A stretch of 51,924 nucleotides of DNA from Myxococcota bacterium. Its GTDB lineage: Bacteria; Myxococcota; XYA12-FULL-58-9; JALHOP01. The stretch's first letter is position 1. Each line of letters begins with the position of its first letter. The notes beneath the pieces were generated by a model. The model had not been told where the DNA came from, did not search any database, and saw only the letters and a list, made by a program, of their open reading frames with translations. The stretch is from the NCBI GenBank assembly GCA_041288095.1, contig JBGGMJ010000210.1, positions 1 through 51,924 of the forward strand, given 5' to 3'. The position numbers and the translations under genes are program-made. Below are positions 33,827-51,723 of this stretch, piece by piece.

Positions 33827-33853
33827 GCAACAACGCATTTGGCGGGCCGATAA
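33827..33853 (+). promoter_or_regulatory. Sigma28-like promoter GCAAC-N14-GCCGATAA
   Basis: Consensus FliA -10 box, 53 nt upstream of ATG 33907. Confidence 0.75.
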
Positions 33854-33906
33854 GTCTCGATGCTAGGCGAATTGCGCCCGGCGCGACTCGAGGACGTAAA
33901 AGCACC

Positions 33907-35106
33907 ATGCGTAGGCTCACAGCGTTGATCTTGCTCAGTTTCGCGGCAGCTTGCGGCTCGGAGCGGGACGTCCCGCCGGGCGCACCTCAAGACGACGACG
34001 GCGGCCCCAGCAGCGCGGCCTTCAGCGCCGAAGACCAAACGCCCGGATTTTACCGCGACGCCTATCGCCTCGTGACCGCGGTCAGCAGCGAGGATCACGC
34101 CACCGCGATCGAGCGTCTCCACTCGCACATCACCCACAAGCTCGAGAGCTCCCCGGAGCTCGACCGCATGCTCGAGCACGATCGCGACACCATTCGCGGC
34201 CTGCTCATCCTGGCCTTGCGCACCATGCAAGCGACCGAGCACCACCCCGAAGTCGCCCACCGCATGGGTGAGTCGATCCTCCAGAAGATTCTCGCGCTCG
34301 ATCCAGCCCGCAAGGTCTGGAACCAGAACAACCCTGGCGACCCGGTCGACATCGCCGAGCCCGGCGCCCGCCTCATCGCGCAGGCGACCGAAGGCGTCTT
34401 GCTCGACGCGGTGAACGCCCCGGTCGACAACTTCGGCAATCCCCTCGTGGGCGGACTGACCGCTGAAGCGGCCGCGCAGTGCGGGACTCCGACCACCCGC
34501 TCGTCGGTGTGGATCCCCGGCCTCGCCGAGCTCACCTGGGTCGACGGTTATTGTCTCCCCGACCAGTATCGCGAGGGCTATTGCGAGCCCGATCGCTACG
34601 TCGAAGGACAATGTTACGACGTCTGGGTCGACGACTGCGCCGGCGGCGAATACGTCAACCAGGGCTATTACGAGTACGTCTGCTACACGAGCACCGACTG
34701 CCAATATCTCTGGCGCAACCGCTGGGTCTGGGTCGGCGGCGGCTGCAACGACGGCTACTGGGACGAAGAGTGCGTCGGCGGTTCATACGAGCCCGGCCTT
34801 TGTTATCCCGACGAGGTCATTGCCGGCGTGTGCATCCCCGGTCGCTACTACTACTTCTATCCCTACGGCAGCTGGGCCTTCCGTGGCGGCGCCAGCAGCG
34901 CCTGTAGCCCGGTCGTGCCGGCGCAGGCGGCAGTGGCGCAGACCAGCGCCAAGATCCTCTCGGGCCGCCTCTCCAAGGACATCGCCGACGACTCGTGGCG
35001 CGCCGCGGTCTTGAACCTGGTCGCGCTGAGCAGCCGCCCGCCCGACGCCGACTACGTGGATGCCGTCCGCCAAATTCTCGAGGCTGCCAGAACGGCAGGT
35101 CCCTGA
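33907..35106 (+). CDS. Lipoprotein with Cys/Tyr/Trp/Gly-rich insertion
   Basis: Start ATG 33907 gives MRRLTALILLSFAAAC lipobox; 12 cysteines with mirror spacing. Confidence 0.8.
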   Translation: MRRLTALILLSFAAACGSERDVPPGAPQDDDGGPSSAAFSAEDQTPGFYRDAYRLVTAVSSEDHATAIERLHSHITHKLESSPELDRMLEHDRDTIRGLLILALRTMQATEHHPEVAHRMGESILQKILALDPARKVWNQNNPGDPVDIAEPGARLIAQATEGVLLDAVNAPVDNFGNPLVGGLTAEAAAQCGTPTTRSSVWIPGLAELTWVDGYCLPDQYREGYCEPDRYVEGQCYDVWVDDCAGGEYVNQGYYEYVCYTSTDCQYLWRNRWVWVGGGCNDGYWDEECVGGSYEPGLCYPDEVIAGVCIPGRYYYFYPYGSWAFRGGASSACSPVVPAQAAVAQTSAKILSGRLSKDIADDSWRAAVLNLVALSSRPPDADYVDAVRQILEAARTAGP

Positions 35107-35114
35107 TTTTTCGA

Positions 35115-35141
35115 GCAACAACCGGAAGCCGCTGCCGAAAA
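35115..35141 (+). promoter_or_regulatory. Sigma28-like promoter GCAAC-N14-GCCGAAAA
   Basis: Same boxes and spacing as the other copies; upstream of AGGAGG RBS and ATG 35166. Confidence 0.7.
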
Positions 35142-35165
35142 CTGATCTGAGACTAGGAGGATGCG

Positions 35166-35663
35166 ATGGAAGCGAGCTCATTTTCCACCAGCCTAGCGAA
35201 GGCCAGCGCTGAAGACCGCAAGGTCTACATCACCAAGAAGAACGGTGATGTCGTCGGTAAAGGCTTCTCGGTCCCCAAGGGTGACTTCTCGCGCTTCCTC
35301 GGCATGAAGGCTCCGACCCCGCAGGAGACCGCCGGCAACGTCGCGGGTTTCCGCGCCATCGAAGTCGCGCTGCAGAAGCAGTTCAATCAGGTCGGCCGCA
35401 GCGCCGTGAAGAACGGTTCGAAGTACACCAGCATCGGTGGCGCCCTCGGCGCTTTCGACAATGAGCCCGGCCGCGAGTTCGATGCCGCGGCGAACGGCCT
35501 GGACGCTATGAAAGACAGCGTCGAGCTCGGTCACGCGATGGGCATGCAGTACCTGGAAATGCAGTACAAGTTCCAGGTCGCGAGCACGAACTATGGCGCC
35601 ATCTCGAACATGATGAAGGCCCGCTACGAGACCGTGAAGAAGTCGCTCGACGGCGTTCGCTAG
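35166..35663 (+). CDS. Hypothetical protein with type III needle/inner-rod-like C-terminal helix
   Basis: MQYLEMQYKFQVASTNYGAISNMMKARYETVKKSLDGVR; strong RBS; no Sec signal. Confidence 0.6.
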   Translation: MEASSFSTSLAKASAEDRKVYITKKNGDVVGKGFSVPKGDFSRFLGMKAPTPQETAGNVAGFRAIEVALQKQFNQVGRSAVKNGSKYTSIGGALGAFDNEPGREFDAAANGLDAMKDSVELGHAMGMQYLEMQYKFQVASTNYGAISNMMKARYETVKKSLDGVR

Positions 35664-37267
35664 AGCGGATCCCGGCCGCGTAACATCCGCTCACCGATGC
35701 TCTCGATGAGCAGCTGAGTGCTCGTCGCCAGCTCGACGAGCCCATCCCGCCGCATGCGCTCACGTGGCGTGTGGTTGTCCACGAGGTCGGTGCCCAGTGA
35801 GATGGCGGCCATGCCCTCGTAGAGCGCCGCGATCGCGCCACACTCGATCGTCGCCGGCAGCAGCGCGACCGATGCGAAATGCTGGCGTCCCAACGCCAAT
35901 GCCGTGCGCACCAGCCAGTGATCTTCTTCCAGCAACCACGGCGCGACGGCGTCGCGTTGGGTTTTTGCCACGTCGAACGCACCGCGCAAGGCTGACTCGA
36001 TGCGCGTGGCCCACGTGGTGGTGTCCGCGGGGGTAAACGTCCGCGCGCTGTAGACCGTGCCGACCGACCCATCGGCGGCGTCGGCCATCAACAAGGCGAA
36101 GTTCGAGGACACCTTCACGGTATCGGGATAGCCGGGGTCAGCGACCAAGAGACCGTCGGGAACCCCAGCGAGCCCGGTGGCTAGCCGCCGCGTTGCCTCC
36201 GAGGTGAAGGCCTTGGCCGCGGTGACCTCGCCGATCGAAGCGGTGAGCTTTACCTGCGCGGGATCTTCGTCGCGCGTCGCGAGCAACGCGGCGAGCTTGG
36301 CGCGCATCTCGGTCAGCGCCTTCTCCACGTTCTCCTTGGGGAGCACGAGGGTCATGCCGCAGGCGTCGTTGATCTTGTTGAAGACCTTACCATCGCCGGA
36401 CCTCACGTTCACGAGTCGTCCGCCAAAGCGTTCAGCGACGGCGATGAGCTCGGCGCCGGCGATCGCCGCGTTGAGACGTCGGCGGTGAGCATCGCGGGCC
36501 GCATGTCCGCCGCGCAGACCGCGAAGGTCGAGCTGCATCTGCGTCGAGCCGGCGTCGGGCGGAGCGGTCGGCGCGAGGCCCCCCATGAACGCTCCCGAGG
36601 ACCCCATGCACCCACGGGTGATGGTGCGGGCGCCGGGCGAGTCGAAGTTGAAGAGGACTCGCCCCGCGAGCGGCAGGCGCATCTGCCTTGCGCCAACGAG
36701 GCCGACTTCTTCACGTGTCGTGAAGACGAGCTCGAGCGGCGGGTGCTCGATGCTCGGGTCGGTGATGTAACGCGCCGCCACCGCCATACCCAAGGCGTTG
36801 TCGGCCCCGAGTGAGGTGCGGGAGCCGAGCGATCGGATCCACTGCTCACCGTCGACGGTGACCAGCTCGGTCTTCACGCCTTGGCGAAAATATGGGCGCA
36901 GATCTTCGCCGGGCTTCGCGCCCTCGACAGCGAGAACCATGTCCATGTGCGCCTGGAGGACGACCGGCTTCGCGAGGTTCGCGAACCGGCCGGTGCCGGG
37001 CAAACGCACGAGGAGGTTTCCCGCGTCGTCGCGGGCGGTCGAAACGCTCCCCGCCGGCCACAGGCTCTCTGACCGGCGCACGATGTCTTCGATTGCGGCG
37101 CGTGCCGCGTCTTCCTCACCCGGCGGGCGATAGAGCCTGGTGAATGCCTCGAAGAGATCCAACACGGCGCCGGCTTTCGTCTCCTGGCGGGGCAGCTTGC
37201 CGCCAGCGACTGCCGGCGGCGCGGGAGGCGCGGCTACTCCAAGGGGGCCCATCGTCACGTGTCGCAT
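35660..37267 (-). CDS. M20 family metallopeptidase, PepD (Xaa-His dipeptidase)-like, with Pro/Ala-rich N-terminal extension
   Basis: DDAGN, LQAHMDMV, LGADN, TREEVG, NFDS, GGH, HTPRE; start 37267 or 37252, downstream of the promoter motif. Confidence 0.85.
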   Translation of the reverse strand: MRHVTMGPLGVAAPPAPPAVAGGKLPRQETKAGAVLDLFEAFTRLYRPPGEEDAARAAIEDIVRRSESLWPAGSVSTARDDAGNLLVRLPGTGRFANLAKPVVLQAHMDMVLAVEGAKPGEDLRPYFRQGVKTELVTVDGEQWIRSLGSRTSLGADNALGMAVAARYITDPSIEHPPLELVFTTREEVGLVGARQMRLPLAGRVLFNFDSPGARTITRGCMGSSGAFMGGLAPTAPPDAGSTQMQLDLRGLRGGHAARDAHRRRLNAAIAGAELIAVAERFGGRLVNVRSGDGKVFNKINDACGMTLVLPKENVEKALTEMRAKLAALLATRDEDPAQVKLTASIGEVTAAKAFTSEATRRLATGLAGVPDGLLVADPGYPDTVKVSSNFALLMADAADGSVGTVYSARTFTPADTTTWATRIESALRGAFDVAKTQRDAVAPWLLEEDHWLVRTALALGRQHFASVALLPATIECGAIAALYEGMAAISLGTDLVDNHTPRERMRRDGLVELATSTQLLIESIGERMLRGRDPL

Positions 37268-37275
37268 GGCCGGCG

Positions 37276-37302
37276 GTATCGGCAGGGCGCCATCCAAGGT
37301 GC
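37276..37302 (-). promoter_or_regulatory. Sigma28-like promoter GCACC-N14-GCCGATAC
   Basis: Same spacing; one mismatch in each box. Confidence 0.6.
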
Positions 37303-37401
37303 AGGGCGGGAAATGCCCGAATGGCACCCCGGGCTGTTCACCAGGTCACGGCGCCGGTTTTTTCTCAACGGCGACGCCCCCTGGCATGCTCGCCAGGCGC
37401 G

Positions 37402-38058
37402 ATGATTCAGCTCTTCCACGTCTACAAGTCGTACGGCGAAGGCGTGCAGGCCTTGCTCGACGTCAACGTCGAGATCGCCAAAGGCGAGCTGGTCTATCTC
37501 ACCGGCCCATCGGGCGCGGGTAAGTCGACACTGCTCCGACTGATCTTCGCGGCCGAGACGCCGTCGCGCGGCCAGGTCTTCGTGGCCGGCAAGAACCTGA
37601 CGCGCCTCACCACCGGCGCCGTGCCCTATTTGCGGCGCAATCTCGGCATCGTCTTCCAGGACTTCAAGTTGCTGCCATCGCGGACCACCTTCGAGAACGT
37701 CGCGGTGGCGCTCGAGGTCTTGGGGCTTCCACGCGCTCATATCCAGAAGCGGGTCTTCGACATGCTCCGGCGCGTCGGGCTCGCGCACAAGCTACACGCG
37801 CTGCCTCGCGCTCTCTCGGGCGGCGAGCAGCAACGCGTCGCCATCGCCCGCGCCTTGGTCGCCGACCCGCAAATCGTCATAGCGGACGAGCCGACGGGTA
37901 ACCTCGACACCGAGCGCGCCGCCGAAATCATGGAGCTCCTCGAGGACGCCAACGCCCGTGGCGCCACCGTCATCGTGGCGACCCACGACAAAGAGCTCAT
38001 GCGGCGCGGCGAACGGCGCATTCTCCGGCTCGACGCCGGAAAGCTCTCGGCCGCGTGA
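37402..38058 (+). CDS. ftsE: Cell division ATP-binding protein FtsE
   Basis: MIQLFHVYKSY, GPSGAGKS, VPYLRRNLGIVFQDFKLL, LSGGEQQRV, ADEPTGNLD. Confidence 0.95.
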   Translation: MIQLFHVYKSYGEGVQALLDVNVEIAKGELVYLTGPSGAGKSTLLRLIFAAETPSRGQVFVAGKNLTRLTTGAVPYLRRNLGIVFQDFKLLPSRTTFENVAVALEVLGLPRAHIQKRVFDMLRRVGLAHKLHALPRALSGGEQQRVAIARALVADPQIVIADEPTGNLDTERAAEIMELLEDANARGATVIVATHDKELMRRGERRILRLDAGKLSAA

Positions 38059-38960
38059 TGCTGGGCCGCTTCGCATATTTCGTCGGGCGTACGGTCTCGA
38101 CGCTGCGCGAGGCTCCGGGCATGAGCCTCCTTACGACGCTGACCATCGCCGCGGCGCTGGTGGTGCTCGGGATCTTCGCGGTCGGCTTCATGGCGATCGA
38201 CGGCTTCACCGCGAGCTGGGGCCGAGTCGCGACCGTTACGGCGTACATCGCGGACGATGTCTCGGCCGACTCTTGGCCTGGGCTGCTCGAGGCCATCGCC
38301 GCCCTACCTTCGGTCGAGAGCGCGGCGTTGGTCACACCCGAGGAAGCGCTCGAGGCTTTCAAGGCACGCGGCCAAGAGGCGCGGGCGCTGGTCGACGGTG
38401 TGAGCACGACGCTGCTACCGGCGTCGATCGAGGTGGTCGTCGCGGAAGACGCGATGGCACTCGAGGCCGTGCACGCGTTAGCGGACACCGTCGCGGGCAT
38501 CAAAGGCGTCGCCGATGTCGATTACGGCCAGGCAGACCACGCACGCTTGTCGGCGCTGGCGCGCGTCATTCGCATCGGCGGCGCCGCGGCGGCGCTGCTC
38601 GTGGCGCTGGCAACCGCGTTCATCGTCTCCTCCACCATCCGTCTCACGGTCTATGCACGGCGCGCCGAGATCGGCATCTTGAAGCTGGTCGGCGCCACCA
38701 ACGGCTTCGTGCGCCTTCCCTTCCTGCTCGAGGGCGCGGTCTGGGGTGCGTGCGGCGGTGGTACCGCGGCATTGCTCCTGTGGCTCGCCGACCACACGCT
38801 GGTGCGCCATCTCGACCTCGGCGAGGTGCTCGGCGTCGCCGCGTCGGTGCGCTTGTTCGCGCCCGAGGTCGCGCTCGGCATTTTCGCCACCGGCATTCTC
38901 TTGGGCGTCTCGGGCGCGGTGCTAGCGGTGCGGCGCTTCCTCGACCTGGAGCCGGCGTGA
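38055..38960 (+). CDS. ftsX: Cell division permease FtsX
   Basis: TIRLTVYARRAEIGILKLVGATNGFVRLPFLLEG; follows ftsE. Confidence 0.93.
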   Translation: MMLGRFAYFVGRTVSTLREAPGMSLLTTLTIAAALVVLGIFAVGFMAIDGFTASWGRVATVTAYIADDVSADSWPGLLEAIAALPSVESAALVTPEEALEAFKARGQEARALVDGVSTTLLPASIEVVVAEDAMALEAVHALADTVAGIKGVADVDYGQADHARLSALARVIRIGGAAAALLVALATAFIVSSTIRLTVYARRAEIGILKLVGATNGFVRLPFLLEGAVWGACGGGTAALLLWLADHTLVRHLDLGEVLGVAASVRLFAPEVALGIFATGILLGVSGAVLAVRRFLDLEPA

Positions 38961-39991: not shown

Positions 39992-40014
39992 GGCTCTGCT
40001 AGAGCATCCGTCAC

Positions 40015-41703: not shown

Positions 41704-41730
41704 TTATCGGCGCCCAGCCCTGGTGGTTGC
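41704..41730 (-). promoter_or_regulatory. Sigma28-like promoter GCAAC-N14-GCCGATAA, antisense to the SnoaL/ctpA genes
   Basis: Perfect match, back-to-back with the plus-strand copy. Confidence 0.6.
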
Positions 41731-41757
41731 GCAACTTCGGCGAACACAGGCCGATAT
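41731..41757 (+). promoter_or_regulatory. Sigma28-like promoter GCAAC-N14-GCCGATAT
   Basis: 54 nt upstream of ATG 41812. Confidence 0.72.
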
Positions 41758-41811
41758 CGATTGAGAGCGGGTCTCCACCCGTTCAATCCCACAGCAAGTT
41801 GAGGCAGACGC

Positions 41812-42387
41812 ATGGGCACTCCGAATGCCGAGCCACGCTCGGCCATTGCACTCGCACGTCCGGTCGCAGCACCCGTTGCTCCGGCCCCAGGTTTCTCGCG
41901 CGCGGTGTTGACCGGCGCGTTGGCTGCTCCCGTGACGTCGCAAGATCGCGGCAATGCCCGCGGCATGCTCGTCTTGGCCCAGCAGCGGCAGACGGTCGCC
42001 CCCGGCGCTCGCCCCGGCCAGCCGATGCGGCCGATGCCCGTGCCCCCCGGCGGCAACCGCGGTGGCTACTATACGCCTGGGTACTCGCCCGGTTACACGC
42101 CCGGCTACTCGTCGCCTGGGTACGTGTCGCCCGGCTACAGCTACCAGCAGCCGAACAGCACCTTCTTCGGCCTCAGCATCGGGCCCAACGGCGTGCAGCT
42201 TGGCGTCGGCAACGGCGTGAACGGCTATTACGGGCAGCAGCAGGCGCTGGCGCAAGACGTGATCGTCGCCAACTCCTATGGCCAGCGTTACTACCTGAAG
42301 GCCGGCTACCCCGTGCCCGCGGGTTACTACGTCGTCGACATGAACCCCGGCCTCTGGGCCTGGTTGACCACGCCGAACGCCTACTAA
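41812..42387 (+). CDS. Hypothetical Pro/Gly/Tyr-rich protein with Y(T/S)PG repeats
   Basis: GAGG RBS; YTPG YSPG YTPG YSSPG YVSPG; GC3-rich codons. Confidence 0.75.
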   Translation: MGTPNAEPRSAIALARPVAAPVAPAPGFSRAVLTGALAAPVTSQDRGNARGMLVLAQQRQTVAPGARPGQPMRPMPVPPGGNRGGYYTPGYSPGYTPGYSSPGYVSPGYSYQQPNSTFFGLSIGPNGVQLGVGNGVNGYYGQQQALAQDVIVANSYGQRYYLKAGYPVPAGYYVVDMNPGLWAWLTTPNAY

Positions 42388-42433: not shown

Positions 42434-43144
42434 CTACTCGTCCGTTTTAGCAGTCGGCTTGATACCGAAGCGGGCGGCCCAGCCAGTGAGCGTTTGCTTG
42501 GCTTGGTCAGCGAGCTCGGCGGCTTGCCCGGCTAGCGCCGCGGCGCGCTCTGGCGCCTGGTCCACGAGGGCGTTGATCTCGCCGTAGACCTGCTTGCCAG
42601 CCGCGACCGGGTCCTCACCGTCGACCAGCGTGAGCTTGGCGGTTCGCGCGGCGGCGCCGAGAGCGACTGCTACAGCGGGCAGGCCGCCCACGAGCAGTGC
42701 GGCACCAGCCACGAGGCCACCCTTGTTGCGCCCGGCAACGTCCTTGGCCGCGTCAGTCACCTTCTTGACGCCGTCTTCGGTCGCGAGCTCGCCGACCGCA
42801 TCCGCGCCCTTCAAGAGGGTGTCGCGAACGGCGCCGTATGCTTGGCCGGCCACGTGGCCCGCGGCGCGCATGTTGGCTTCGAAGGTGCTCTCGGCAGCCG
42901 CGGCGGCAACCTCGGGGTTGGGGCGTTGCGGCTCGGCCGCCGGCGGCGGGTCGGGAAGCTTGCGCTGCGAATCAGCGAAGCTCGGGCGCGGGGTGCCTTG
43001 GTCGGCCTTTTGCGTTTTCGCGCCGCCTTCAGTCGACGCCTTGCGACGCTTGCGACGGGTCGGCTGGGCCTTCTCGCCCGAGGCGACATCGTCAGTGGTG
43101 GTAGCGCCGCGGTCAGTGCCCGTATTCGTAGCCTTGCGAACCAT
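42434..43144 (-). CDS. Hypothetical protein with disordered N-terminus and Gly/Ala-rich hydrophobic hairpin
   Basis: GGGAG RBS; GGLVAGAALLVGGLPAVAVALGAAA segment. Confidence 0.75.
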   Translation of the reverse strand: MVRKATNTGTDRGATTTDDVASGEKAQPTRRKRRKASTEGGAKTQKADQGTPRPSFADSQRKLPDPPPAAEPQRPNPEVAAAAAESTFEANMRAAGHVAGQAYGAVRDTLLKGADAVGELATEDGVKKVTDAAKDVAGRNKGGLVAGAALLVGGLPAVAVALGAAARTAKLTLVDGEDPVAAGKQVYGEINALVDQAPERAAALAGQAAELADQAKQTLTGWAARFGIKPTAKTDE

Positions 43145-43225: not shown

Positions 43226-43252
43226 TTATCGACGAACGCGGACCGGCGTTGC
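43226..43252 (-). promoter_or_regulatory. Sigma28-like promoter GCAAC-N14-GTCGATAA
   Basis: Intergenic, about 80 nt upstream of ATG 43144. Confidence 0.72.
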
Positions 43253-43310: not shown

Positions 43311-44024
43311 CTAGGTTGCGGCGACGACGCGACTGCCGGGAGCCGGCAACTGCGCGGGCGGCACGGGCTCGACCGCGGGGCCGGTGAGCTGCTTCGGCGT
43401 GTCGGGACCAGGCGGCGGCAGCGCCAAGGGCTGGAAAGGCTTGGCGCCGAGCATGAGGAGGAGGCGCCGTCGCCATGATTTGTCACGGGCGATCCCCTGC
43501 TGGTTCGCCGCCTGCACCGCTTCGAAATCTTCGCGCGCCTTCACGTACTTGGGATCGCGCATGAGGACGAAACGCTCTCCGTTCGTCTCGTACGGCCCGC
43601 TGATCGCGAACCCAGCGGCTTGGTACATGCCGCGCACTTCGACCATGAGCGTTCTGTGGAGGACGACGACGTCCGGCACCGGAGCGCTTTCGCCCTCGCC
43701 CTTGAACGCGGTGGCGTGGCGCTTCTCGAACTCCGCCTTGCTGAGGAGGTCGACGCGCGTCGCCCAGCGGAGGGTTCGGTCGTAGTTGTCCTCGTTACGG
43801 TAGTTGATGGTCTCGCGATACGGATTCTCGCCGATGTCACGCAGGCGCTTGAAGTGCTCGTCGATCAGGCCCTCGCACTCCTTCGCGAGACCCTCGCAGA
43901 AACGGCGCGCCGCCATGATCTGATCCGGCGTCGCCGCGCCCTTGTAACCATAGCGCTCGGTCAACGGCGTCGTGTCGGCGGTCTGGACCGGCTTCTCCGC
44001 GCGAACGGCATCCGCGGTAATCAT
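43311..44024 (-). CDS. Hypothetical protein (last gene of the AAA/TelA-like operon)
   Basis: GGAG RBS; ATGA overlap with the upstream small ORF. Confidence 0.75.
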   Translation of the reverse strand: MITADAVRAEKPVQTADTTPLTERYGYKGAATPDQIMAARRFCEGLAKECEGLIDEHFKRLRDIGENPYRETINYRNEDNYDRTLRWATRVDLLSKAEFEKRHATAFKGEGESAPVPDVVVLHRTLMVEVRGMYQAAGFAISGPYETNGERFVLMRDPKYVKAREDFEAVQAANQQGIARDKSWRRRLLLMLGAKPFQPLALPPPGPDTPKQLTGPAVEPVPPAQLPAPGSRVVAAT

Positions 44025-44197
44025 GACTTGTCTCCAATAGCGGAACTGGCGCGGAGCTCGAGAGCGCGAACTCCGCCCTCGACCCGCTCGCCTCGGGGCA
44101 CGATGTCGCCCAAGACACGCGCCAGCTTGTGACGGTCCACGCGCGGTGTCTTGCCGAGCTCAGCGATGAAACGACGCACCTCTGCCGCTGTGATCAT
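44021..44197 (-). CDS. 58-aa small protein missing from the ORF track
   Basis: MITAAEVRRFIAELGKTPRVDRHKLARVLGDIVPRGERVEGGVRALELRASSAIGDKS; GAGGT RBS; stop overlaps the next start; fills the operon gap. Confidence 0.6.
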   Translation of the reverse strand: MITAAEVRRFIAELGKTPRVDRHKLARVLGDIVPRGERVEGGVRALELRASSAIGDKS

Positions 44198-44216
44198 GCA
44201 AACCTCGCTGCGTTGG

Positions 44217-45365
44217 CTACTTCTTGCTCGCGGCGGCCCGGAAGCCCGCGAACAGCGCCTTACCCGTGGCGCCGGCGGTGCTGAGTAAGCGACCGACGTT
44301 TTCGCGCAGTTGAACGACTTCGGGGGCGTCGATCAGCTTCGGCTCGTCTGCGAACAGTGCGTTGATCTGGCCCATCTTCTCGGGCTCGGTGAGCTTGCCC
44401 TGCACGGCCTTGCGCGCCTGTGAGCGTTGATCGTCGAACAACACGAGGAAGGCGCAGATCTCGTCGGCGCTCATGCCGTTGTACTTGCTGACAATCGCCT
44501 CGAACGCGGCGAGACGCGCACTCTCATCGTCCTTCGCGAAGCGGGCGACGACCTCGGTTGCGATGACACGCGATTCGATGTGCTTGGCCAGCACCTTGAG
44601 CGCCTCGACCCGGAACGGGTAGTTGGCTTTGCCCTGCGTGTTGTTGAAGCCGTCGAGGACCTCGAGGGTCGTCGCGGCATCGATCTTCATGTCGAGGATA
44701 GCGTCTGAGATCGAGCCCAGCGCCTTGAGGCGCTCCTCGCAGCTGTTCGAGAAGAAATCGAGGAGCTTGAAGACGCGCGGATCGGGGTTGTCTTTCATCC
44801 GCCGCAGCGACTGGGCGAAGCCCTTGCCCTTGAGCCACCCGGCAACGCCGCCGTGCACGTTCTCGGTGAAGCCAATCGCCGCCGCGATATCGTCAGGCGA
44901 AGCGCGTTTCCTCCAGATGCGAAAACCAACTCCGACTGGCCGCGGCGTGAGGCCTTCGGCCACCGTCGCGAGCTGACGTGCTTGGTCGGCGACGATGAGC
45001 GAGGTGCCCTTCACCTTTTCGCTGACGCGCGCGAGTGCTTCATCGGTTTGCGGCGACACCGCGACCGGGGTGCCAGCGCTCTGCTTGAACGCCGCCAGCG
45101 CACCCGCCAGCGCGGCCTGCAAATTGGGTGCGGCACCCGCCGTCGTGGCGGCGCTGCCTTCGATCGACTTGGCTTTCCCTTCGCCCTTCGGCGCGCGCTT
45201 ACCAGTGTCGACGTCGTCGAGGACCTTGCGCGCCCTCTTCACCACGCGTCGTGTCTTACCGGCGACGCGTGCGGCGGCGATGGTAGCGGTCGCCGCGCCC
45301 TCGTCACCGGCGATCTGCTTTGCGATGTTGATGCCGAGCTCGACGCCCGCCGCTTTCATGCTCAT
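44217..45365 (-). CDS. Hypothetical alpha-helical protein
   Basis: 382 aa; ATGA overlap with the upstream gene. Confidence 0.78.
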   Translation of the reverse strand: MSMKAAGVELGINIAKQIAGDEGAATATIAAARVAGKTRRVVKRARKVLDDVDTGKRAPKGEGKAKSIEGSAATTAGAAPNLQAALAGALAAFKQSAGTPVAVSPQTDEALARVSEKVKGTSLIVADQARQLATVAEGLTPRPVGVGFRIWRKRASPDDIAAAIGFTENVHGGVAGWLKGKGFAQSLRRMKDNPDPRVFKLLDFFSNSCEERLKALGSISDAILDMKIDAATTLEVLDGFNNTQGKANYPFRVEALKVLAKHIESRVIATEVVARFAKDDESARLAAFEAIVSKYNGMSADEICAFLVLFDDQRSQARKAVQGKLTEPEKMGQINALFADEPKLIDAPEVVQLRENVGRLLSTAGATGKALFAGFRAAASKK

Positions 45366-45955
45366 GACACGTCGCTCCGATTGCGGCGAATGGCGGCCGT
45401 CCAGCCGCGTTGCGCTAACGAGCGGCCGAGGTCGAATAGATCGCTCGCACGCGCGCGCACTTGCTCTCTGACGGCGTCGACGGTGCCGTCATCGACTTTG
45501 CGCTGCCAAGCAGCGTGCGCTGCCTTGATGCCCTGATCAGCCATCTGCAGACCGCGGTCCGCGACCGAGGCCGCGACGATGATCACGCTGGCGAGCCCGG
45601 GGCCCTGCTTCGCGAGCTCGACCGGTGCCTTGGCGGCCTTCGTGCAAATCATGAGGCGGTGGAAGGCTGCATTGGTTTCGATGATCTCAGCCGGGGTGGC
45701 GCCGTTGTTCTTGACGAAGTCTTCGTAGAGCAGCTTCGCAAGCTTGCGCTGCTTTACTTTTGCCGCTGCGGGGTCCTTGCCGAGCACATCGCGCACGAAC
45801 GACAGGTCGAGCTCGGGTTTTTCTCGGTGCGGCCGCGCGTTGATGGCGCGCGCTGCCTCGAGCGCCTTCAAGAGATCCGGGTTGCGGGCGGGCTGCGCCT
45901 CGCCGGGGATGACAGCGAGCGCGCCTGCCGATTGCGCTGCGGGTTCGACACTCAT
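45362..45955 (-). CDS. Hypothetical protein
   Basis: 197 aa; ATGA overlaps at both ends. Confidence 0.75.
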   Translation of the reverse strand: MSVEPAAQSAGALAVIPGEAQPARNPDLLKALEAARAINARPHREKPELDLSFVRDVLGKDPAAAKVKQRKLAKLLYEDFVKNNGATPAEIIETNAAFHRLMICTKAAKAPVELAKQGPGLASVIIVAASVADRGLQMADQGIKAAHAAWQRKVDDGTVDAVREQVRARASDLFDLGRSLAQRGWTAAIRRNRSDVS

Positions 45956-48900
45956 GCGCTGTCTCGCTTTCGTTTGCTGGGTGCTGCGGTCTTGGCTGGC
46001 GCCGGCTTGGCGGCGGGCAGGTGTGCGGCGAGCTTCGGAGCGCGGGCCTCCCAGGCGAGCCCACCCTTGCCGGCGATCACGTAGTCGACGGCGTTGATGA
46101 GCGCTTCACTACTCACCGCGGAACGATCCCACTCGGCGTACTCGGGCTGGCGGCGCACGCTGAGGTGCTCGTCACGCACTGCTTGCGCGAGCGTCTCGAG
46201 GTCGAGACCGTTGTTCCAGTTGGGCTGCTCGATGAGGTGCTGCATGACCTCGATGAGCTGGGCCTTGGCCTCGTCGTGGAGCTGGAGGTCGAACGCCTCG
46301 ATCTTTTTCGCGAGCACCTTGCCGGCGGCGTCGGCGTCCATCACATGGGTCTCGAAGCGACGGTTGAAGAGCGAAGCCAGCACACCCGTCTGATCGAGCT
46401 TGAGGAAGTCGGCGATCTCTTTGTCGGTGCCGACGAGCGACACGGCGATGTTTTTCCCGTGCTCGCGCAAGCCGGACTTCAGCGTCGAGATGACGTCGGT
46501 CGTGTACTGGTCCTTGTTGTCGACCAAGCCCTTGAGGTTGTGCAGCACCAAGTGTCCGCCCGCGGAAGCGACACGACGGAGCTCCTTGTTGGTCAAGGTG
46601 ATCGCGGCGCCGACGACATCGCCCTTGAGTGTCGTGACATCGGTGACGAAGGGCTCGTCGCTACCCACCAAGCTGAAGGCCTTGTAGATGTGCGTGAGCT
46701 CGTTGGCGAAGGTCTTTCGGCCGGTGCCGGAGTCGCCGATGATGCGGGCGAACGGCTTGTAGCCTTCGCGAACCGGCTTCTTCTTGATGCGCTGGTCGTC
46801 GACCGTCGCGCCGATCTTGGAAAGCGCCGCCTGCAGATGCCCGAAGCCGACGAACGACTCGAGGCGCCGCACCACATTGTCGATCGTGTCCGGCTGGTCG
46901 CCGAAGTCCGAGGCGATGAGGTCGTTCATGGTGTCGGGCGTGCGCACGCGGTTCGCGAGTCGCGTGATCGCCTCGGCGACCAGGTCGCGAATCGCGCCGC
47001 CATTGCCGAAGCCGGCGCGAGTCTTGAGCACGTCGACGATGCGCATCGCCGCGTCGATGACTTCGTCGGTCGCGTTGTAACCGCGGTTCTTGATGCGCGA
47101 GACGAGCATGGCGCGCAGGTCCGGGAGCTCCGGCACGTCGAGCGTGATGCGATTCACGAGCGGGAAGCGCCGGTCGGTGCCCTGATCGATGTCGGGGTCG
47201 AGCACGTCTTTCATCTCTTCCGGATAACCGAGGCCGATGACCGTGGTCGTGCCAGACTCGTTGAGCAGGTGGGGCACGAGGACGCTGATGGCGTAGCGGC
47301 CCATCTCCGTCTTCGCCAGCGTGTGCATCTCGTCGATGGCGCCGACGCCGAACTTGGCGCGCTTCAAGAAGTCGAGGACCAGCTCTTTGGTCTCCGCCTC
47401 GGTCGAGCCGATGAGCTCGCTCGAGGTGATGTACGTGAGCTTACCGTTGCGCTCTCCGATCTCGTAGAGCAGGTCGTTGATGAACTCGACGGCGGTCGTC
47501 TTGCCCGTGCCCTTCTCGCCGAGGAGCAGGATGTTGTTGTTGTCTTCCTCGACGGCGACGCCAGCCGTGAGCTTGCGCTGGTTCTCGACCACGCGCTTGG
47601 CGTAGCTCTCGGCCCACGCGATGAAGTTCTTCTGGCTAGAGCGCTCCCTCTTCAGGCGCTCGAGCGCAGGCAGGCTGCCATCGGCCTCGTAGAAGGTCGC
47701 CGGCGCGACGTCGGCGCCCGTGAGGGTTCTCTCCACTTCGTCGGAGTGCGGCGTCTCGGGGACCTTGCCGTCGGGATAGAGTCGCGTCGACATACGACCG
47801 CACGACTCCTCGAGGATCGCGTCGACTTCGTCGCCACCGGCGTTGGTGATGCTACGCAGCCGGCCTTTGGCCGCCTTCTCGGCGTCGACGTCGACGAGGA
47901 GCTTGTACTTGTCCGCCGCCATCTTGACGAACATCGCCATGAGCGTGTCGGCCGTGAGGCCGGTGAAGGGGATTTGGGTGCGAAGAGTGTCGCGGGTGCG
48001 GTAGTCGGCGTCGAGCGTGCCGCGCAGGCTCTTGGCACCGGACATCACCAGCACCGGCTCGCCTACGCAGGCCGCCAGCGCTTCGATGAGGTTGAGCTCG
48101 CCGTGGTGCACGTCGCGATCGAGGATCTCGGCGTTCTCCATGAGGATCACGCCCTGTTTGCAATGGCGAACGACGGCGTGCAGGTCGGCGCCGCTCTCGA
48201 TGACGCGGCGCAGGTCGATGACGTTGACGCGCGGAGCAGTCGCGATCTTGGCATCGAAGAGCATGCGCGCGTAGATCATCGCGGCGAGCTTGCGGCCGAC
48301 CCCGTTGGGCCCGACTAGCGCCGCGGCGAGCACCGGACGCATCGCCGGGTTGCGCTGAGCGTGCGTGATCTTGCTCGCCATACCCGAGAGCCACTTGGTC
48401 GCGGCTTTCTGGTCCTTGAGCTTGTCGATCGTGCAGTCCACGGGGACGTCGATGACGTGCAGGACTTCGCGCTTGGCGTTGAGCGAGGTCGCGGCGTTGG
48501 GCGGTGAAGCGAACGGGTCCGACTCGTCGACGGCGGTGCGCGTCGCCGCCGGCGCGGCGGTAGCTCGTGCAGGCCGGGTGGCGGGCGCGTCATGGTTCGC
48601 GGCCTCGACTGCGTCAGTCCCGTGGTCACCGAGGATCGGTCCAACGCTCTCGATGAGCTGGCGATGCGCGGTCGCCAATGCGGCGCGACGATGGCCCAAT
48701 TCGGAGATGATGTTGCGCGCGGCGTACATAGGAACGTCGCGGCCCAGCTGGTCATCGCCCGTCGTGGGCGCGGGGCGCGGCGCTTGGGGCGCGTCCTCGG
48801 TGGAGAGCGGCTCTCCCGATTGCTGCTTGGCGGTGCGAACAGCCGTGAGCACGCGGTCGTACTCGACGTCGCCAATCGCGAAGCGCTGGCGCTGCCCGCT

Positions 48901-49014
48901 GATGTGAGCAAGCGCTTCGTCCGGCGTGACCGGAACTCCGGTGAGGTCTGCGCCGCGGTAGAAAATCCGACCGTCGGGATGGACCTGAAGCTTTGCATTC
49001 GCCGGAATCGACAT
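45952..49014 (-). CDS. Triple-module AAA+ ATPase, CbbX/SpoVK/EccA-like
   Basis: GPNGVGRK, GEKGTGKT (with IDEMH, RRF, FGNGG), GDSGTGRK. GGGAG RBS favours ATG 49014 over 49047. Confidence 0.85.
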   Translation of the reverse strand: MSIPANAKLQVHPDGRIFYRGADLTGVPVTPDEALAHISGQRQRFAIGDVEYDRVLTAVRTAKQQSGEPLSTEDAPQAPRPAPTTGDDQLGRDVPMYAARNIISELGHRRAALATAHRQLIESVGPILGDHGTDAVEAANHDAPATRPARATAAPAATRTAVDESDPFASPPNAATSLNAKREVLHVIDVPVDCTIDKLKDQKAATKWLSGMASKITHAQRNPAMRPVLAAALVGPNGVGRKLAAMIYARMLFDAKIATAPRVNVIDLRRVIESGADLHAVVRHCKQGVILMENAEILDRDVHHGELNLIEALAACVGEPVLVMSGAKSLRGTLDADYRTRDTLRTQIPFTGLTADTLMAMFVKMAADKYKLLVDVDAEKAAKGRLRSITNAGGDEVDAILEESCGRMSTRLYPDGKVPETPHSDEVERTLTGADVAPATFYEADGSLPALERLKRERSSQKNFIAWAESYAKRVVENQRKLTAGVAVEEDNNNILLLGEKGTGKTTAVEFINDLLYEIGERNGKLTYITSSELIGSTEAETKELVLDFLKRAKFGVGAIDEMHTLAKTEMGRYAISVLVPHLLNESGTTTVIGLGYPEEMKDVLDPDIDQGTDRRFPLVNRITLDVPELPDLRAMLVSRIKNRGYNATDEVIDAAMRIVDVLKTRAGFGNGGAIRDLVAEAITRLANRVRTPDTMNDLIASDFGDQPDTIDNVVRRLESFVGFGHLQAALSKIGATVDDQRIKKKPVREGYKPFARIIGDSGTGRKTFANELTHIYKAFSLVGSDEPFVTDVTTLKGDVVGAAITLTNKELRRVASAGGHLVLHNLKGLVDNKDQYTTDVISTLKSGLREHGKNIAVSLVGTDKEIADFLKLDQTGVLASLFNRRFETHVMDADAAGKVLAKKIEAFDLQLHDEAKAQLIEVMQHLIEQPNWNNGLDLETLAQAVRDEHLSVRRQPEYAEWDRSAVSSEALINAVDYVIAGKGGLAWEARAPKLAAHLPAAKPAPAKTAAPSKRKRDSA

Positions 49015-49077
49015 GACGGATGCTCCCGGAGGGCGCGGCCGAGCCATCGCTGGCCCGGCCGCTCAGGTTGCGGAGAA

Positions 49078-50487
49078 TTAGCGGGTCAGGCTCGCGCGTC
49101 CGGCCTGCTTGGCCTGCAGACCCTGCACGAACTTCGTCATGTCGCTGGTACGCGCACGCATCGGGTTCTGGGTCACCGGGCCGGTTAGCTTCGCCGTGGT
49201 CGGCGTGAAGATGGCGCGCTTGCCGGCCGCGCGGTCGGCGAGGAGCTGCTCCATGAAAGCCATCGTGTCTTCCTCGGACTTGAGGTTGGCCGCGTACATG
49301 GCGCCGGCCATCTGCATGGTGGCGTCGTGGGTGCGCTGCTGCCATTCGTTCATGTTGTCGCCGAACGCGGCGACGCGACCCGAGAGGTGCTCGATGGCGC
49401 GCGTCAGGTTCTGCGTCGTGGTGTCGAACACGAGCATGCTCCAGTCGGCGGCGTTGATCATCGCGGCGACCGCGGCGACGACGCCGGTGGTCACGCCTTG
49501 GAGCTCGCGCAGCTTGACGCCGTTCGAAAGGACGCGTGCGGCGTTGCCTTCCGCGTTGTCGAGCAAAGCCTGGAGCTGTACGCCCATGACCTCGAAGTCA
49601 CGCAGGTTGCCACACCAGTCGTTCAAGAACGCCGCGTACTTGGTGATCTCGCGCGAGCGGTCTTTCAAGGTGGTCAGGGTGGCCTCGTTCGCGCCGTAGT
49701 CAGCGTGCATCGGGTCGAGGGTCTTCTGCTCCTCTTCGATCGCCTTGATCTCTTCCTGCACCTCGTGGAGCACGTCGACGGCGCCGTTGAAGCGCGTGAC
49801 CGATTCCTCGAGCTGCTGCGAGAACTCGACGCGGGAAGCCGCGAGATTTTGGCCGACGCCCTCGAAGGCCTTGATGCGGTCCTCGAGAGTGGTGATCGCC
49901 GCCTCGACGATGTCGAGCTGCTTGAGCAAGAGCTTGTCGAGCTCGAGGTCGTCAATCTTGGCGGGCGCGGGCTTGCGCTTCACCCAGTTCATGAACTTGC
50001 CGACGACGCCTTCCTTGACCTCTTCCTTTTGGTTGGTCTTGTGGACGTTCGCGCCCTTCAGCATGTCGGCCGGCATGAGGTCGACGAGCTCTTGCAAGTT
50101 GTCGGCGACGGCCTGGCGCACTTCGTCACCGCTCGCGATAGCGGCCTGCATGGTCGTGAACGAGGTCTTGATGTCCTCTTTGCGCTTGTCGAAGGAGGCC
50201 TGGCGCGACTCGTTGTAGGCAGCCAGCGTCTGGCCGTCGACGATGCCGCCCTTCAGGGTCTCCTTGAAGGCATCGATCGAGGCGATGGCCTTGCCTGCGG
50301 CGCGAATGGTCGCGCCCGCACCGGCGACTTGCGTGCCCGCGGGCACTTTGCCTTCAGCCGACGGCGCTCGGCGCTCGGCGGCAATGTCCTCTAGGCCACG
50401 GCGCTTGCGCTTCGTCGCCGCGGGCTTGTCGGTCGCTGCCGCTGCGGCGGCTGGGGTCTGCGGGGCACCATCTACTTTGCTAACCAT
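49078..50487 (-). CDS. Long coiled-coil protein, possibly a distant TelA (toxic anion resistance)-like protein
   Basis: AGGA RBS; LQELV...KEGVVGKFMNW, long heptads, hydrophobic TTGVVAAVAAMI, FDTTTQNL; family call by eye only. Confidence 0.55.
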   Translation of the reverse strand: MVSKVDGAPQTPAAAAAATDKPAATKRKRRGLEDIAAERRAPSAEGKVPAGTQVAGAGATIRAAGKAIASIDAFKETLKGGIVDGQTLAAYNESRQASFDKRKEDIKTSFTTMQAAIASGDEVRQAVADNLQELVDLMPADMLKGANVHKTNQKEEVKEGVVGKFMNWVKRKPAPAKIDDLELDKLLLKQLDIVEAAITTLEDRIKAFEGVGQNLAASRVEFSQQLEESVTRFNGAVDVLHEVQEEIKAIEEEQKTLDPMHADYGANEATLTTLKDRSREITKYAAFLNDWCGNLRDFEVMGVQLQALLDNAEGNAARVLSNGVKLRELQGVTTGVVAAVAAMINAADWSMLVFDTTTQNLTRAIEHLSGRVAAFGDNMNEWQQRTHDATMQMAGAMYAANLKSEEDTMAFMEQLLADRAAGKRAIFTPTTAKLTGPVTQNPMRARTSDMTKFVQGLQAKQAGRASLTR

Positions 50488-50508
50488 GATGTTTTTTCCT
50501 TTTGCTCG

Positions 50509-51660
50509 TCAAAAAAAAGTGGATCGAACTTTCAACGTCGTGTCGTACTTCTCTGCATAGAACTCGAGTGCGCTGCGCAGCTCCGGCGTACACACCCAGA
50601 GCTTGTCCACTTCCGCGGACCAACCCTGTGCGATCAAACGCTCGAGTGGAGCGTCGTCGGGATCGACCCATGCGGGGTTCGTCACCTCACGCGGCTCGCG
50701 CCAGAGCTCGAAGGCGGTGAAGCAAGCAATCAGGTTGTCCGGTAGCGCGTCGAACACGTCGGCGATGGGGTCCGGCATCACCGCGCCGCTAAAATAGACC
50801 GGCCCGACGATACCTTGCGTGACGCCGGTGAGCGCCTGGCCGCAGTGCCTCGAAACGATGAGAGCGAGGTGTGATGCGCCTTGCTTGGCGAGCGAGCCGA
50901 CCATCGCGTTCAGCTCGCGGTTCATTGCCCAAGCGCCGCTCGCGTCTTGGGTCATGGGCGCCACGTCGACGCTGGTCGCCTTGCTCGGATCGATGTGCAA
51001 GGTGGTGCGCACGACGAAGCCGGGATCGCGCCAGGCATCCAGGTGGACGCGAAAGCGGCGCGTCTGACCGTCGACCTCGACCACTTCGATGCGCGCGTCG
51101 CTGGTCAACGGCGAATCGGGGATGTCCTTCAAGAGGTCGCGCACGTGTGCGCTCATGGGCGTCGAGAGGTGTAGCTTCGTGTAGCGTGGGTCGTCGGCGC
51201 GGAAATGGCGCGCGAGGTCGCGCTGCGCGTGGACTTGGGCCCAGCTGACGTACGTCGGCATGCCGGTCTCGCCGTGGAGCTGGACCCGCTGCTCGCGCGG
51301 CATCATGCCCAGCGCCGAGAGGCCGGTGAATGCTCTCTCGAGGTACTTCGGGCTGACGAAACGATCGTCGAGCTGCGCCGTCTTCACCGCGCGGCTCATG
51401 CTGGCACCGTAGTCTTGCACCTCTTTGTGCGTCAGCTTTAGCGGAGGCACGCTATCGTAGACTTCCGCGGTGCCGACCGCGACCAAGCGTCCAGCGCCAG
51501 GATGGACCTCGAAGCCGTCTTGGACTTCGTGACCGGAAGGGACAGCCGGCGCCTCGTTGGCGGGAGCGAGGCTCGGCAACGCGTCGAGCGCTTGACCAAG
51601 ATCAGCGAGCCAGTGCGGCTCACCGTTGCTTGCTCCGTTCGCTGAGGACGTGAAGGCCAC
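50509..51660 (-). CDS. Hypothetical protein (first gene of the operon)
   Basis: Start moved to GTG 51660 (GGAG RBS, downstream of the promoter motif). ETGMPTY, RRFRVH, VGPVYF segments. Confidence 0.75.
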   Translation of the reverse strand: MAFTSSANGASNGEPHWLADLGQALDALPSLAPANEAPAVPSGHEVQDGFEVHPGAGRLVAVGTAEVYDSVPPLKLTHKEVQDYGASMSRAVKTAQLDDRFVSPKYLERAFTGLSALGMMPREQRVQLHGETGMPTYVSWAQVHAQRDLARHFRADDPRYTKLHLSTPMSAHVRDLLKDIPDSPLTSDARIEVVEVDGQTRRFRVHLDAWRDPGFVVRTTLHIDPSKATSVDVAPMTQDASGAWAMNRELNAMVGSLAKQGASHLALIVSRHCGQALTGVTQGIVGPVYFSGAVMPDPIADVFDALPDNLIACFTAFELWREPREVTNPAWVDPDDAPLERLIAQGWSAEVDKLWVCTPELRSALEFYAEKYDTTLKVRSTFF

Positions 51661-51696
51661 CGTTAACCGCTCCGCAATCGCTGAGTTCGAGGAAGA

Positions 51697-51723
51697 TATT
51701 CGGCGGCGTTGTTCGCTTGTTGT
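51697..51723 (-). promoter_or_regulatory. Sigma28-like promoter ACAAC-N14-GCCGAATA
   Basis: Same spacing; 36 nt upstream of GTG 51660. Confidence 0.65.

Follow-up and report, generated by a model that had tools for sequence, protein, structure and literature searches.

Promoter-Like Sites in the Window

The DNA described here (the window) is a stretch of 51,924 nucleotides that makes up the entire contig C210 (JBGGMJ010000210.1) of G000, a metagenome-assembled genome of a Myxococcota bacterium (5.85 Mb in 212 contigs, 66% G+C, 90% complete). Window DNA is present in 5 soil metagenome DNA runs from 2 studies, and close protein relatives belong without exception to uncultured genomes with the labels Myxococcota, Deltaproteobacteria or Bdellovibrionales. 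The window carries dispersed copies of a two-box motif, GCAAC-N14-GCCGATAA, in which a -10 box of the FliA/SigD (sigma-28) type is combined with an unusual -35 box. An initial annotation had listed seven copies and attributed them to a FliA-like sigma factor acting on non-flagellar genes. Here, the motif is followed through the genome and the phylum to a probable reader, a sigma factor encoded in a non-flagellar type III secretion system (T3SS) cluster. The window was searched with at most two mismatches allowed, and eight two-box matches were found, compared with a mean of 0.98 and a maximum of 4 in 100 shuffles used as the control. They are listed below together with one weaker copy (P7).

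33827..33853, plus strand: P1, exact GCAAC-N14-GCCGATAA, 0 mismatches, position weight matrix (PWM) score 24.9
35115..35141, plus strand: P2, GCAAC-N14-GCCGAAAA, 1 mismatch, PWM score 23.2
37276..37302, minus strand: P3, variant boxes GCACC-N14-GCCGATAC, 2 mismatches
41704..41730, minus strand: P4, exact consensus, PWM score 26.4
41731..41757, plus strand: P5, GCAAC-N14-GCCGATAT, 1 mismatch, PWM score 23.6
43226..43252, minus strand: P6, GCAAC-N14-GTCGATAA, 1 mismatch, PWM score 22.0
51697..51723, minus strand: P7, doubtful, ACAAC-N14-GCCGAATA, 3 mismatches, missed by the search
51782..51808, plus strand: P8, GCAAC-N14-CCCGATAC, 2 mismatches, PWM score 19.6
979..1005, minus strand: 2 mismatches, inside a called coding sequence, probably a chance match

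Six of the seven copies named in the initial annotation were recovered at this stringency, but the seventh (P7) was not. P8 was absent from that list; it appears to be genuine and precedes a gene that the contig end interrupts. As had been stated, the copies precede start codons, with 53, 24, 8, 54, 81 and 36 nt between the -10 box and the start. P4 is an exact consensus site outside coding sequence, as claimed, but no open reading frame (ORF) lies downstream of it. The control copies of GCCGATA inside genes (6366, 17932 and 21922) exist, and none of them was returned by the two-box search. Degenerate 7-bp tandem repeats with GCCGATA occur at 19710-19763 of the window and on two other contigs (C110:14-97 and C64:118-138), with up to 12 exact copies at a contig end. 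Raw counts of GCCGATA are raised by these repeats, which have nothing to do with the two-box promoter.

Orthologous intergenic regions of three sister species (G001-G003) were aligned with those of the window. Across these species, the window boxes are invariant and the spacers differ. At P1, both boxes are the same in all four species, and the 14-nt spacer varies (AACGCATTTGGCGG, AACGCCTTCGGGCG, AACGCCTTGGACGG and AACGTGTGGGTCGG). The P2 boxes are kept in G001-G003, P5 is conserved too, and the P6 boxes are kept in both sister species that aligned there. P4 and P5 stand back to back with the junction GTTGC/GCAAC. P4 is among the best-scoring promoters of the genome and faces the 3' end of a convergent SnoaL-like gene. 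Conservation across four species covers its -10 box and the ~35 nt that open the putative transcript, but not the ATG. This transcript would run leftwards to about 41640 and may be a short RNA or antisense to the facing gene. A structured small RNA behind P4 was considered and rejected, since the fold was no better than that of shuffles (z = +0.61).

Genes Behind the Window Sites

The genes that follow the sites are listed below, with lengths in amino acids (aa).

33907..35106, plus strand: 399-aa gene behind P1, Cys-rich, 0 Pfam families, start 53 nt past the -10 box
35166..35663, plus strand: 165-aa orphan gene behind P2, no Sec-type N-terminus, 0 Pfam families, start 24 nt past the -10 box
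35660..37267, minus strand: ~535-aa gene behind P3, Peptidase_M20 and M28 matches, both under the Pfam cut-offs
41812..42387, plus strand: 191-aa orphan gene behind P5, ORF opening with the ATG at 41812, 54 nt past the -10 box
42434..43144, minus strand: 236-aa orphan gene behind P6, 0 Pfam families, start 81 nt past the -10 box
50509..51660, minus strand: 383-aa gene behind P7, 0 Pfam families, called start 36 nt from P7
GTG at 51874, plus strand: gene behind P8, truncated by the contig end

Five of the six genes behind window sites have no Pfam family, and the sixth has only sub-threshold peptidase matches. The product of 33907-35106 has a lipoprotein-like N-terminus (MRRLTALILLSFAAACGS) and is for this reason not regarded as a T3SS substrate. 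As the ATG of the P3 gene is only 8 nt past the -10 box, its mRNA may be leaderless. The ATG at 41812 and its GAGG are conserved in four species, and the part 41905-42387 has 0 Pfam families. The last 40 bases of the window recur in contig C201, at a 160-aa gene of the regulon described below, and the P8 gene continues there.

Several observations concern the surroundings of these genes. The segment 35660-37350 is the sole part of 33.5-43.5 kb without a DNA alignment in the three sister species, and both its flanks align; a non-aligning gene behind P3 would suit a fast-changing cargo gene. Seven genes on the minus strand occupy 43311-51660, and only one of them has a Pfam family (a 1020-aa AAA+ ATPase). 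This run behind P7 may be one operon. Directly upstream of P1, and divergent from it, lies a pair on the minus strand (30729-33759) that consists of a KaiC-like double-domain ATPase (510 aa) and then a hybrid histidine kinase/receiver.

Distribution of the Motif in the Genome

The genome-wide scan that had been proposed as a check on the initial annotation came out in its favour, as the motif is spacer-specific, intergenic and gene-proximal across the genome. Genes of G000 were called with a home-made ORF caller (5094 genes, 93.5% coding; 6.7% of the genome outside gene calls). Exact matches numbered 20 with a 14-nt spacer (N14) and 6 with a 15-nt spacer (N15); none of the spacers 10-13 and 16-19 gave more than one. 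With at most one mismatch, 108 matches were found at N14 and 54 at N15, compared with 2-16 at the eight other spacers. Although only 6.7% of the genome is intergenic, 143 of these 162 near-exact matches were intergenic, and 133 were located at most 300 nt upstream of a co-oriented start, at a median distance of 43 nt.

A PWM was built from the near-exact seed matches and applied with a threshold score of 16; it was used for ranking only because its core columns are circular. It returned 197 sites at N14 and 94 at N15 versus 8-30 at other spacers, and 257 of the 291 sites were intergenic versus 8 of 97 at four control spacers. The 291 sites lead to 251 downstream genes (the regulon), and the genome holds an estimated 250 such promoters. 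The consensus reaches one base further upstream, (A/G)CGCAAC, and GCACC is a frequent -35 variant genome-wide. A seed-free search, anchored on GCAAC-N16-CGA only and so avoiding the seed bias, gave 173 intergenic sites. The anchor is preceded at the CGA by GC in 74 of them and followed by TA[A/C/T] in 117, while control spacings of the GCAAC/CGA anchor gave 27-35 sites with 0-4 of each extension. The motif is almost certainly the promoter of an alternative sigma factor.

In the Pseudomonas aeruginosa fliC promoter, TCTAAAG occupies -36 to -30 and GCCGATAA occupies -15 to -8, according to the available text of PMC12784957. The canonical layout is therefore TAAAG-N14-GCCGATAA. The motif found here has the same -10 element and the same 14-nt spacing as sigma-28 promoters, with GCAAC in place of TAAAG. 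The assignment of the -10 box to the FliA/SigD type holds, as the layout equals that of the fliC promoter and the seed-free search recovers GC-CGA-TA. The -35 box is non-canonical, as had been said, and flagellin promoters of relatives carry CTAAAG at the same N14 spacing (CTAAAG-N14-GGCGATGA in G001 and CTAAAG-N14-GTCGATGC in G005). Two -35 specificities therefore coexist in the group on one shared geometry. A canonical class of the form TAAA[G/C]-N14/15-[GC]NCGA[TA] was sought in G000 itself and rejected, since its 23 + 23 matches versus 7-25 at other spacers show no enrichment.

Candidate Sigma Factors

The genome of G000 contains 36 Sigma70_r2 matches, about 30 of them in small sigma-70-family genes. 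Sigma28-like genes, which the initial annotation had expected elsewhere in the genome, are present in the form of two FliA/WhiG-like genes, S and X.

G000:C92:35188-36072, minus strand: S, 294-aa sigma factor, TIGR02479 best family
G000:C127:21759-22571: X, 270-aa sigma factor, TIGR02479 best family

The FliA/WhiG family was represented by the NCBIfam model TIGR02479, which has a curated cut-off of 189.6 bits. Both S (163.7 bits) and X (166.1 bits) fall below this cut-off, yet it is the best-scoring family for each. Residues 71-290 of S align to residues 24-248 of P. aeruginosa FliA (E = 6e-27), and the next best matches are FliA or WhiG. Full-length likeness to solved structures gives S the sigma-28 domains 2, 3 and 4 and no region 1.1. 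Databases label its orthologues just 'sigma-70 family RNA polymerase sigma factor'.

In P. aeruginosa FliA, R97 reads the GC of the extended -10 element, Q228 contacts -35 bases, and TAAAG is read by the S224/Q228 helix, as described in the accessible part of PMC12784957. In the alignment to this protein, S retains counterparts of D66, R82 and R97, and its region 4.2 has R at the Q228 position and W at the R225 position. The helix is SKSWTSRL in G000 and SKSW[T/A]SRLH in 36 of the 38 S orthologues covering it, at an overall identity of 48-99%. The canonical S, R and Q (SR.CQL) are kept by X (TDSRVCQL) and by F (TESRACQL), a third FliA type that is found in sister species beside flhA, flhB and flagellins. 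As judged from the alignment, the altered helix of S fits a GCAAC -35 box in place of TAAAG.

The search of G000 yielded neither F nor a flagellin, a rod protein or a second FlhA/FlhB. Because the three sister species have these genes and the assembly is 90% complete, flagellar loss and a missing contig are indistinguishable here. A FlgM-type protein, also named in the initial annotation as something to look for, was found directly after X; this 80-aa protein passes the Pfam FlgM cut-off (31.3 vs 25 bits). X and the FlgM-family protein occupy G000:C127:21759-22853, and no flagellar gene or TAAAG promoter class was found in the assembly. Beside S no FlgM was found: its 159-aa neighbour reached an hhalign probability of 0.2% against FlgM, and the homologues of this neighbour have no Pfam family common to more than 2 of 15 members. 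Complex prediction for S with the 159-aa neighbour gave a score of 0.09 and a mark of 0.32, which is no evidence either way.

The T3SS Cluster and Motif Placement Around S

Type III export genes of the sct series, for which the initial annotation had suggested a search, are present in G000 and are non-flagellar (SctV, SctR, SctS, SctT, SctQ, SctN, SctL, SctJ and SctU). Contig C92, which carries S, also carries sctT, sctS, sctR, a FliO-like gene, sctQ, FliK-like and FliJ-like genes, sctN, sctL, a weakly FliG-like gene and sctJ; sctV is on contig C31 and sctU on contig C41. SctV, SctR, SctS and SctQ exceed their cut-offs, SctT, SctN, SctL and SctJ are best matches just below theirs, and SctU is present. 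No T3SS-type secretin was found in G000, the best SctC match being 142 bits versus a cut-off of 238. With core export and sorting genes and no dedicated secretin, the system belongs to the 'Myxo'-type of non-flagellar T3SS in the sense of Abby and Rocha 2012.

The neighbourhood of S was compared in 39 loci of other Myxococcota genomes (238 kb). The conserved order is a ~185-aa protein, a TPR chaperone, a ~150-aa protein, S and a ~162-aa protein. The first gene of the S operon has no Pfam match; its C-terminus is reminiscent of needle proteins. The TPR chaperone shows weak likeness to LcrH/SycD, SctY and CdsG. The homologue of the ~162-aa protein in G000 is the weakly SctI-like C92:23691-24182, the first gene of the sctJ operon.

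Of the 24 loci in which the start of the S operon could be assessed, 16 have a plus-strand motif with at most two mismatches, placed 62-123 nt upstream of the first gene. The interval from S to the SctI-like gene could be assessed in 32 loci, and 21 of them carry such a motif there. Outside these two places, the 238 kb contain 15 matches on the plus strand and 11 on the minus strand. The same arrangement was seen in 3 of 4 more distant loci, in which S is 39-45% identical; one of these belongs to the 9-Mb genome G029, where 17 kb separate the S homologue from sctV and the motif precedes the operon of that homologue. G000 itself has weaker copies: ACAAC-N14-ATCGATAA precedes the S operon, ACAAC-N14-TCCGATAA the sctI-sctJ operon and GCACC-N15-GACGATAC the sctV operon. 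As in systems of the HrpL type, the sigma gene lies inside the T3SS cluster, with its putative promoter before T3SS operons. We assign the motif to S mainly because it precedes the S operon and T3SS operons, as expected of a self-driving sigma factor, and this comparison makes S quite probably the reader of the motif.

Other features of the cluster were also recorded. S and the sctI-sctJ operon are adjacent in most other Myxococcota loci and separated in this genus; at C92:24471-35154, an RND efflux operon (MdtABC-like, with an outer-membrane factor) and a 473-aa gene split them. The 340-aa protein of C92:21671-22693 has a FliG_M match just over the Pfam cut-off (28.5 vs 25). Two genes with HD and weak RelA/SpoT-like domains lie at C92:10570-13679 in the T3SS cluster and hint at a nucleotide signal. 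Behind sctU, at C41:2120-5144, come a stretch with weak likeness to TPR chaperones and a regulon gene whose promoter scores 21.6; this may be a further piece of the T3SS neighbourhood.

The Motif and S in Other Genomes

The three sister species have 19-28 exact N14 matches each, compared with 0-17 in each of 18 further genomes of the order and 0-5 in each of 19 genomes from other orders; the reversed pattern gave 0-1. Related genomes do not count as independent samples, and the number of exact matches in a genome depends on its own consensus. Counts at no more than one mismatch were set against the reversed-pattern control genome by genome.

G015: S is the only FliA-like gene, no flagellin; N14 80 vs 10
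G013: S is the only FliA-like gene found; N14 24 vs 3
G009: holds S; N14 21 vs 2
G025: another order, S 69% identical; N14 53 vs 11, N15 42 vs 5
G005: S truncated by the contig end; N14 44 vs 4
G029: S homologue 45% identical; N14 9 vs 4, N15 4 vs 3
G040: S homologue 56% identical; N14 12 vs 7, N15 0 vs 7
G037: S homologue 43% identical; N14 2 vs 1, N15 5 vs 3

An absence of S from G005 was considered and rejected, since the S operon runs into the contig end there, with residues 63-79 at bases 51-1. The large regulon is a feature of some lineages only, because G029, G040 and G037 are hardly enriched despite an S homologue. Orthologues of X (at least 40% identity) were found only in G001-G003, G005, G006 and G012. 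Since none was found beyond these six genomes, X cannot explain the motif elsewhere.

Products of the Regulon

A Pfam scan (E <= 1e-4) was carried out on 118 of the 198 genes behind promoters scoring at least 18, a set that is not a random draw. In this set, 87 of the 118 proteins have no Pfam family; hydrolases or related proteins account for 22 of the other 31. The proteases and peptidases comprise two S8 subtilases, a C11 clostripain, a C2 calpain, an M4 thermolysin with a propeptide motif, an M14 carboxypeptidase and members of C26, M64, S9 (prolyl oligopeptidase) and S41. Nuclease-type products are a non-specific endonuclease (Endonuclease_NS), an Exo_endo_phos nuclease/phosphatase and a DHH protein. 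Lipids and polymers are represented by two alpha/beta hydrolases, two lipases, a polyhydroxybutyrate (PHB) depolymerase and an amylase-type enzyme. A lytic transglycosylase (SLT) with LysM and peptidoglycan-binding domains, an adenosine deaminase and a serpin are also encoded.

In these proteins, the first domain mostly begins at residue 70-165, and the N-termini lack a signal peptide. A hydrophobic N-terminal core, as scored by a crude Kyte-Doolittle test, was found in 18 of 197 regulon proteins (9%) compared with 1785 of 4686 other proteins (38%; p = 1e-19). Residues 2-26 of the regulon proteins contain more S, T, P, A and Q, and less L, F, D, E and K, than those of other proteins. As many as 226 of the 251 regulon proteins have no paralogue inside the set. 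A shared N-terminal module was rejected, as no pair has a match confined to the first 130 residues. The earlier suggestion that non-flagellar genes of the regulon resemble type III substrates stands in that the products mostly lack Sec-type N-termini, but it fails for the lipoprotein-like product behind P1. The normally extracellular kinds of enzymes, the absence of Sec signals, the long leaders and a sigma factor from the T3SS cluster are the reasons for reading the products as cargo. On this sequence evidence, the chances that most of them are T3SS cargo appear to be about even. Not all can be, because housekeeping enzymes are among them.

Proposed Explanation and Alternatives

We consider it fairly likely that GCAAC-N14/15-GCCGATAA is the promoter of S and that S drives its own operon, the T3SS and dispersed cargo genes. 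S, whose gene lies in a non-flagellar T3SS cluster, is a group-3 paralogue of the sigma-28 family. It keeps the sigma-28 parts that read the extended -10 element GCCGATAA, and its changed region 4.2 helix would read GCAAC. S would then drive its own operon (needle-like protein, TPR chaperone, 159-aa protein and S), the T3SS structural operons and, in this genus, some 200-250 dispersed genes. The dispersed products would be T3SS cargo that digests prey cells after contact.

Several points weigh against this explanation. The assignment to S is by association, and no anti-sigma factor for S was identified in the searches described above. No strong motif lies directly upstream of S or X, and the S-operon box in this genus has 3 mismatches. 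Exact counts vary widely among S-holding genomes, from 0 in G009 and G007 to 28 in G002, and G029, G040 and G037 hold an S homologue yet show little or no enrichment. Some regulon genes have Sec or lipoprotein-type N-termini, including 33907-35106 of the window, and UvrC, a fatty-acid desaturase and a cyclopropane synthase are housekeeping enzymes within the regulon. The PWM scores are circular for ranking, as the matrix was seeded with near-exact matches, and the gene set depends on a home-made ORF caller. The sequencing runs that carry window DNA are DNA only, with no RNA runs among them. The usual layout of promoters of extracytoplasmic function (ECF) sigma factors, a -35 'AAC' and a -10 'CGA/CGT' 16-17 nt apart, is a further point of this kind.

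On that layout, an ECF (group 4) sigma factor could read the motif as AAC-N16-CGAT, the resemblance to sigma-28 promoters being convergent. The genome has about 30 small sigma-70-family genes from which such a reader could come, and one sigma gene (C126:18121-18726) directly follows a regulon gene with a promoter score of 18.0. However, the -10 element extends to GC-CGA-TA[A/C], as in sigma-28 promoters, and in loci across the phylum the motif flanks S and no ECF gene. None of the 32 called sigma genes has the motif within 300 nt upstream, so an autoregulated ECF sigma factor was rejected, and the three sigma genes with a motif 988-1699 nt upstream compare with ~2.4 expected by chance. We regard an ECF reader as very improbable. 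Reading by X is hardly more credible. X scores as high as S on the FliA/WhiG model (166 vs 164 bits), its neighbour passes the Pfam FlgM cut-off (31.3 vs 25 bits), and G005 combines an X orthologue (59% identity) with 44 motif matches. G005 also holds a truncated S, however, and the motif is abundant in G015, G013, G009 and G025, where no X orthologue of at least 40% identity was found. No motif was found upstream of X, and its helix is the canonical SRVCQLH, like that of the flagellar paralogue whose flagellin promoters carry CTAAAG.

The alternative that concerns the products rather than the reader is that S reads the motif and the regulon is a life-cycle or 'attack-phase' programme, most products being intracellular or exported by other routes. 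FliA-type promoters of Bdellovibrio drive proteases, surface proteins and many unknowns at attack phase, as far as the accessible text of PMC3627812 describes. The regulon described here includes UvrC, the desaturase, the cyclopropane synthase, an AAA ATPase and several Sec/lipoprotein-type proteins, and its N-terminal composition bias is modest (S+T 16.0% vs 13.1%). In contrast, loci from across the phylum have S and the promoter within the T3SS cluster and ahead of its structural operons, and thermolysin, subtilases, lipases, endonuclease and lytic transglycosylase come without Sec signals and with leaders of 70-165 residues. We hold such a programme to be possible and somewhat unlikely. A bolder version of the cargo explanation is that S is a flagellar class-3 checkpoint carried into the earliest-branching injectisome, with activation of the T3SS on prey contact lifting a brake on S. 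The brake would perhaps be removed by export, as with FlgM; S would then boost its own operon and the machine and switch on more than 200 unique cargo genes. We infer such a timing of the regulon only tentatively, and consider the checkpoint as a whole unlikely.

Relation to Known Systems

The hrp box is the closest known case in function. In the available parts of PMC2957411 and PMC3879358, a sigma factor encoded with T3SS genes drives the machine operons and dispersed effector genes through this box, and the box has been used to list effectors genome-wide. Like HrpL and the hrp box of Pseudomonas syringae, Erwinia and Dickeya, S lies in a T3SS cluster, and one promoter would serve the machine and dispersed genes. 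HrpL is an ECF (group 4) sigma factor, and its box differs from the motif found here. Unlike HrpL, S is of the group-3 sigma-28 type, the regulon is several times larger (~250 promoters), and the host is a soil myxobacterium and no plant pathogen.

In the reading of the promoter, the closest case would be FliA with FlgM, as in E. coli, Salmonella and P. aeruginosa. The -10 element GCCGATAA with its GC extension and the 14-nt spacing are the same, S keeps the -10-contacting residues, and the sigma gene lies among type III export genes. The system of S differs in its -35 box GCAAC, changed helix, non-flagellar targets, family score under the cut-off and lack of an adjacent FlgM. In its spread over the genome of a predator, the system would come closest to FliA of Bdellovibrio. 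The consulted part of PMC3627812 places a FliA-type TTAAG-N16-CCGATA before 92 of 140 attack-phase promoters and proposes the flagellar FliA of B. bacteriovorus itself, with this near-canonical TTAAG box, as a global attack-phase regulator. In both cases, a sigma-28-type promoter stands over more than 100 non-flagellar genes of a likely predator, including proteases and unknowns. Unlike Bdellovibrio FliA, S is a separate paralogue with its own -35 box and is a member of a T3SS cluster, and the flagellins of relatives keep CTAAAG.

The needle-less T3SS* of Myxococcus xanthus (mxan_2434-2464) is needed for prey lysis, and its effectors are described as unknown in the available text of PMC10849154 and PMC12075869. 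It belongs to the same phylum and has a similar core set, likewise with no T3SS-type secretin found. What differs from the descriptions of T3SS* is that the sigma factor S sits in the cluster; 'sigma' and 'FliA' have 0 occurrences in the main texts of PMC3459982 and PMC12075869. Our literature search, with subscription papers and supplements outside its scope, found no sigma-28-type factor in a myxobacterial T3SS cluster and no report of this box.

Significance

The Myxo-type system has been placed at the root of non-flagellar T3SS (PMC3459982). A flagellar-type sigma factor with a re-aimed -35 reading in such a cluster would be a regulatory remnant of flagellar descent. It would also be a clean natural case of sigma re-specification, with two or three sigma-28 paralogues of one cell having a -10 element in common and being separated, as it appears, by a single helix and a single pentamer. 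If S does act as a checkpoint carried over from the flagellum, no known T3SS effector set would come near the regulon in size. Bacterial prey would then be digested from within by proteases, nucleases, lipases, a peptidoglycan lyase, a PHB depolymerase and a glycogen-type amylase, and the box would be a phylum-wide 'hrp box' for finding myxobacterial T3SS* effectors. In some lineages, the promoter marks T3SS operons together with hundreds of genes and so provides a testable candidate list for the cargo of the myxobacterial T3SS, the same kind of effector list that the hrp box gave in plant pathogens.

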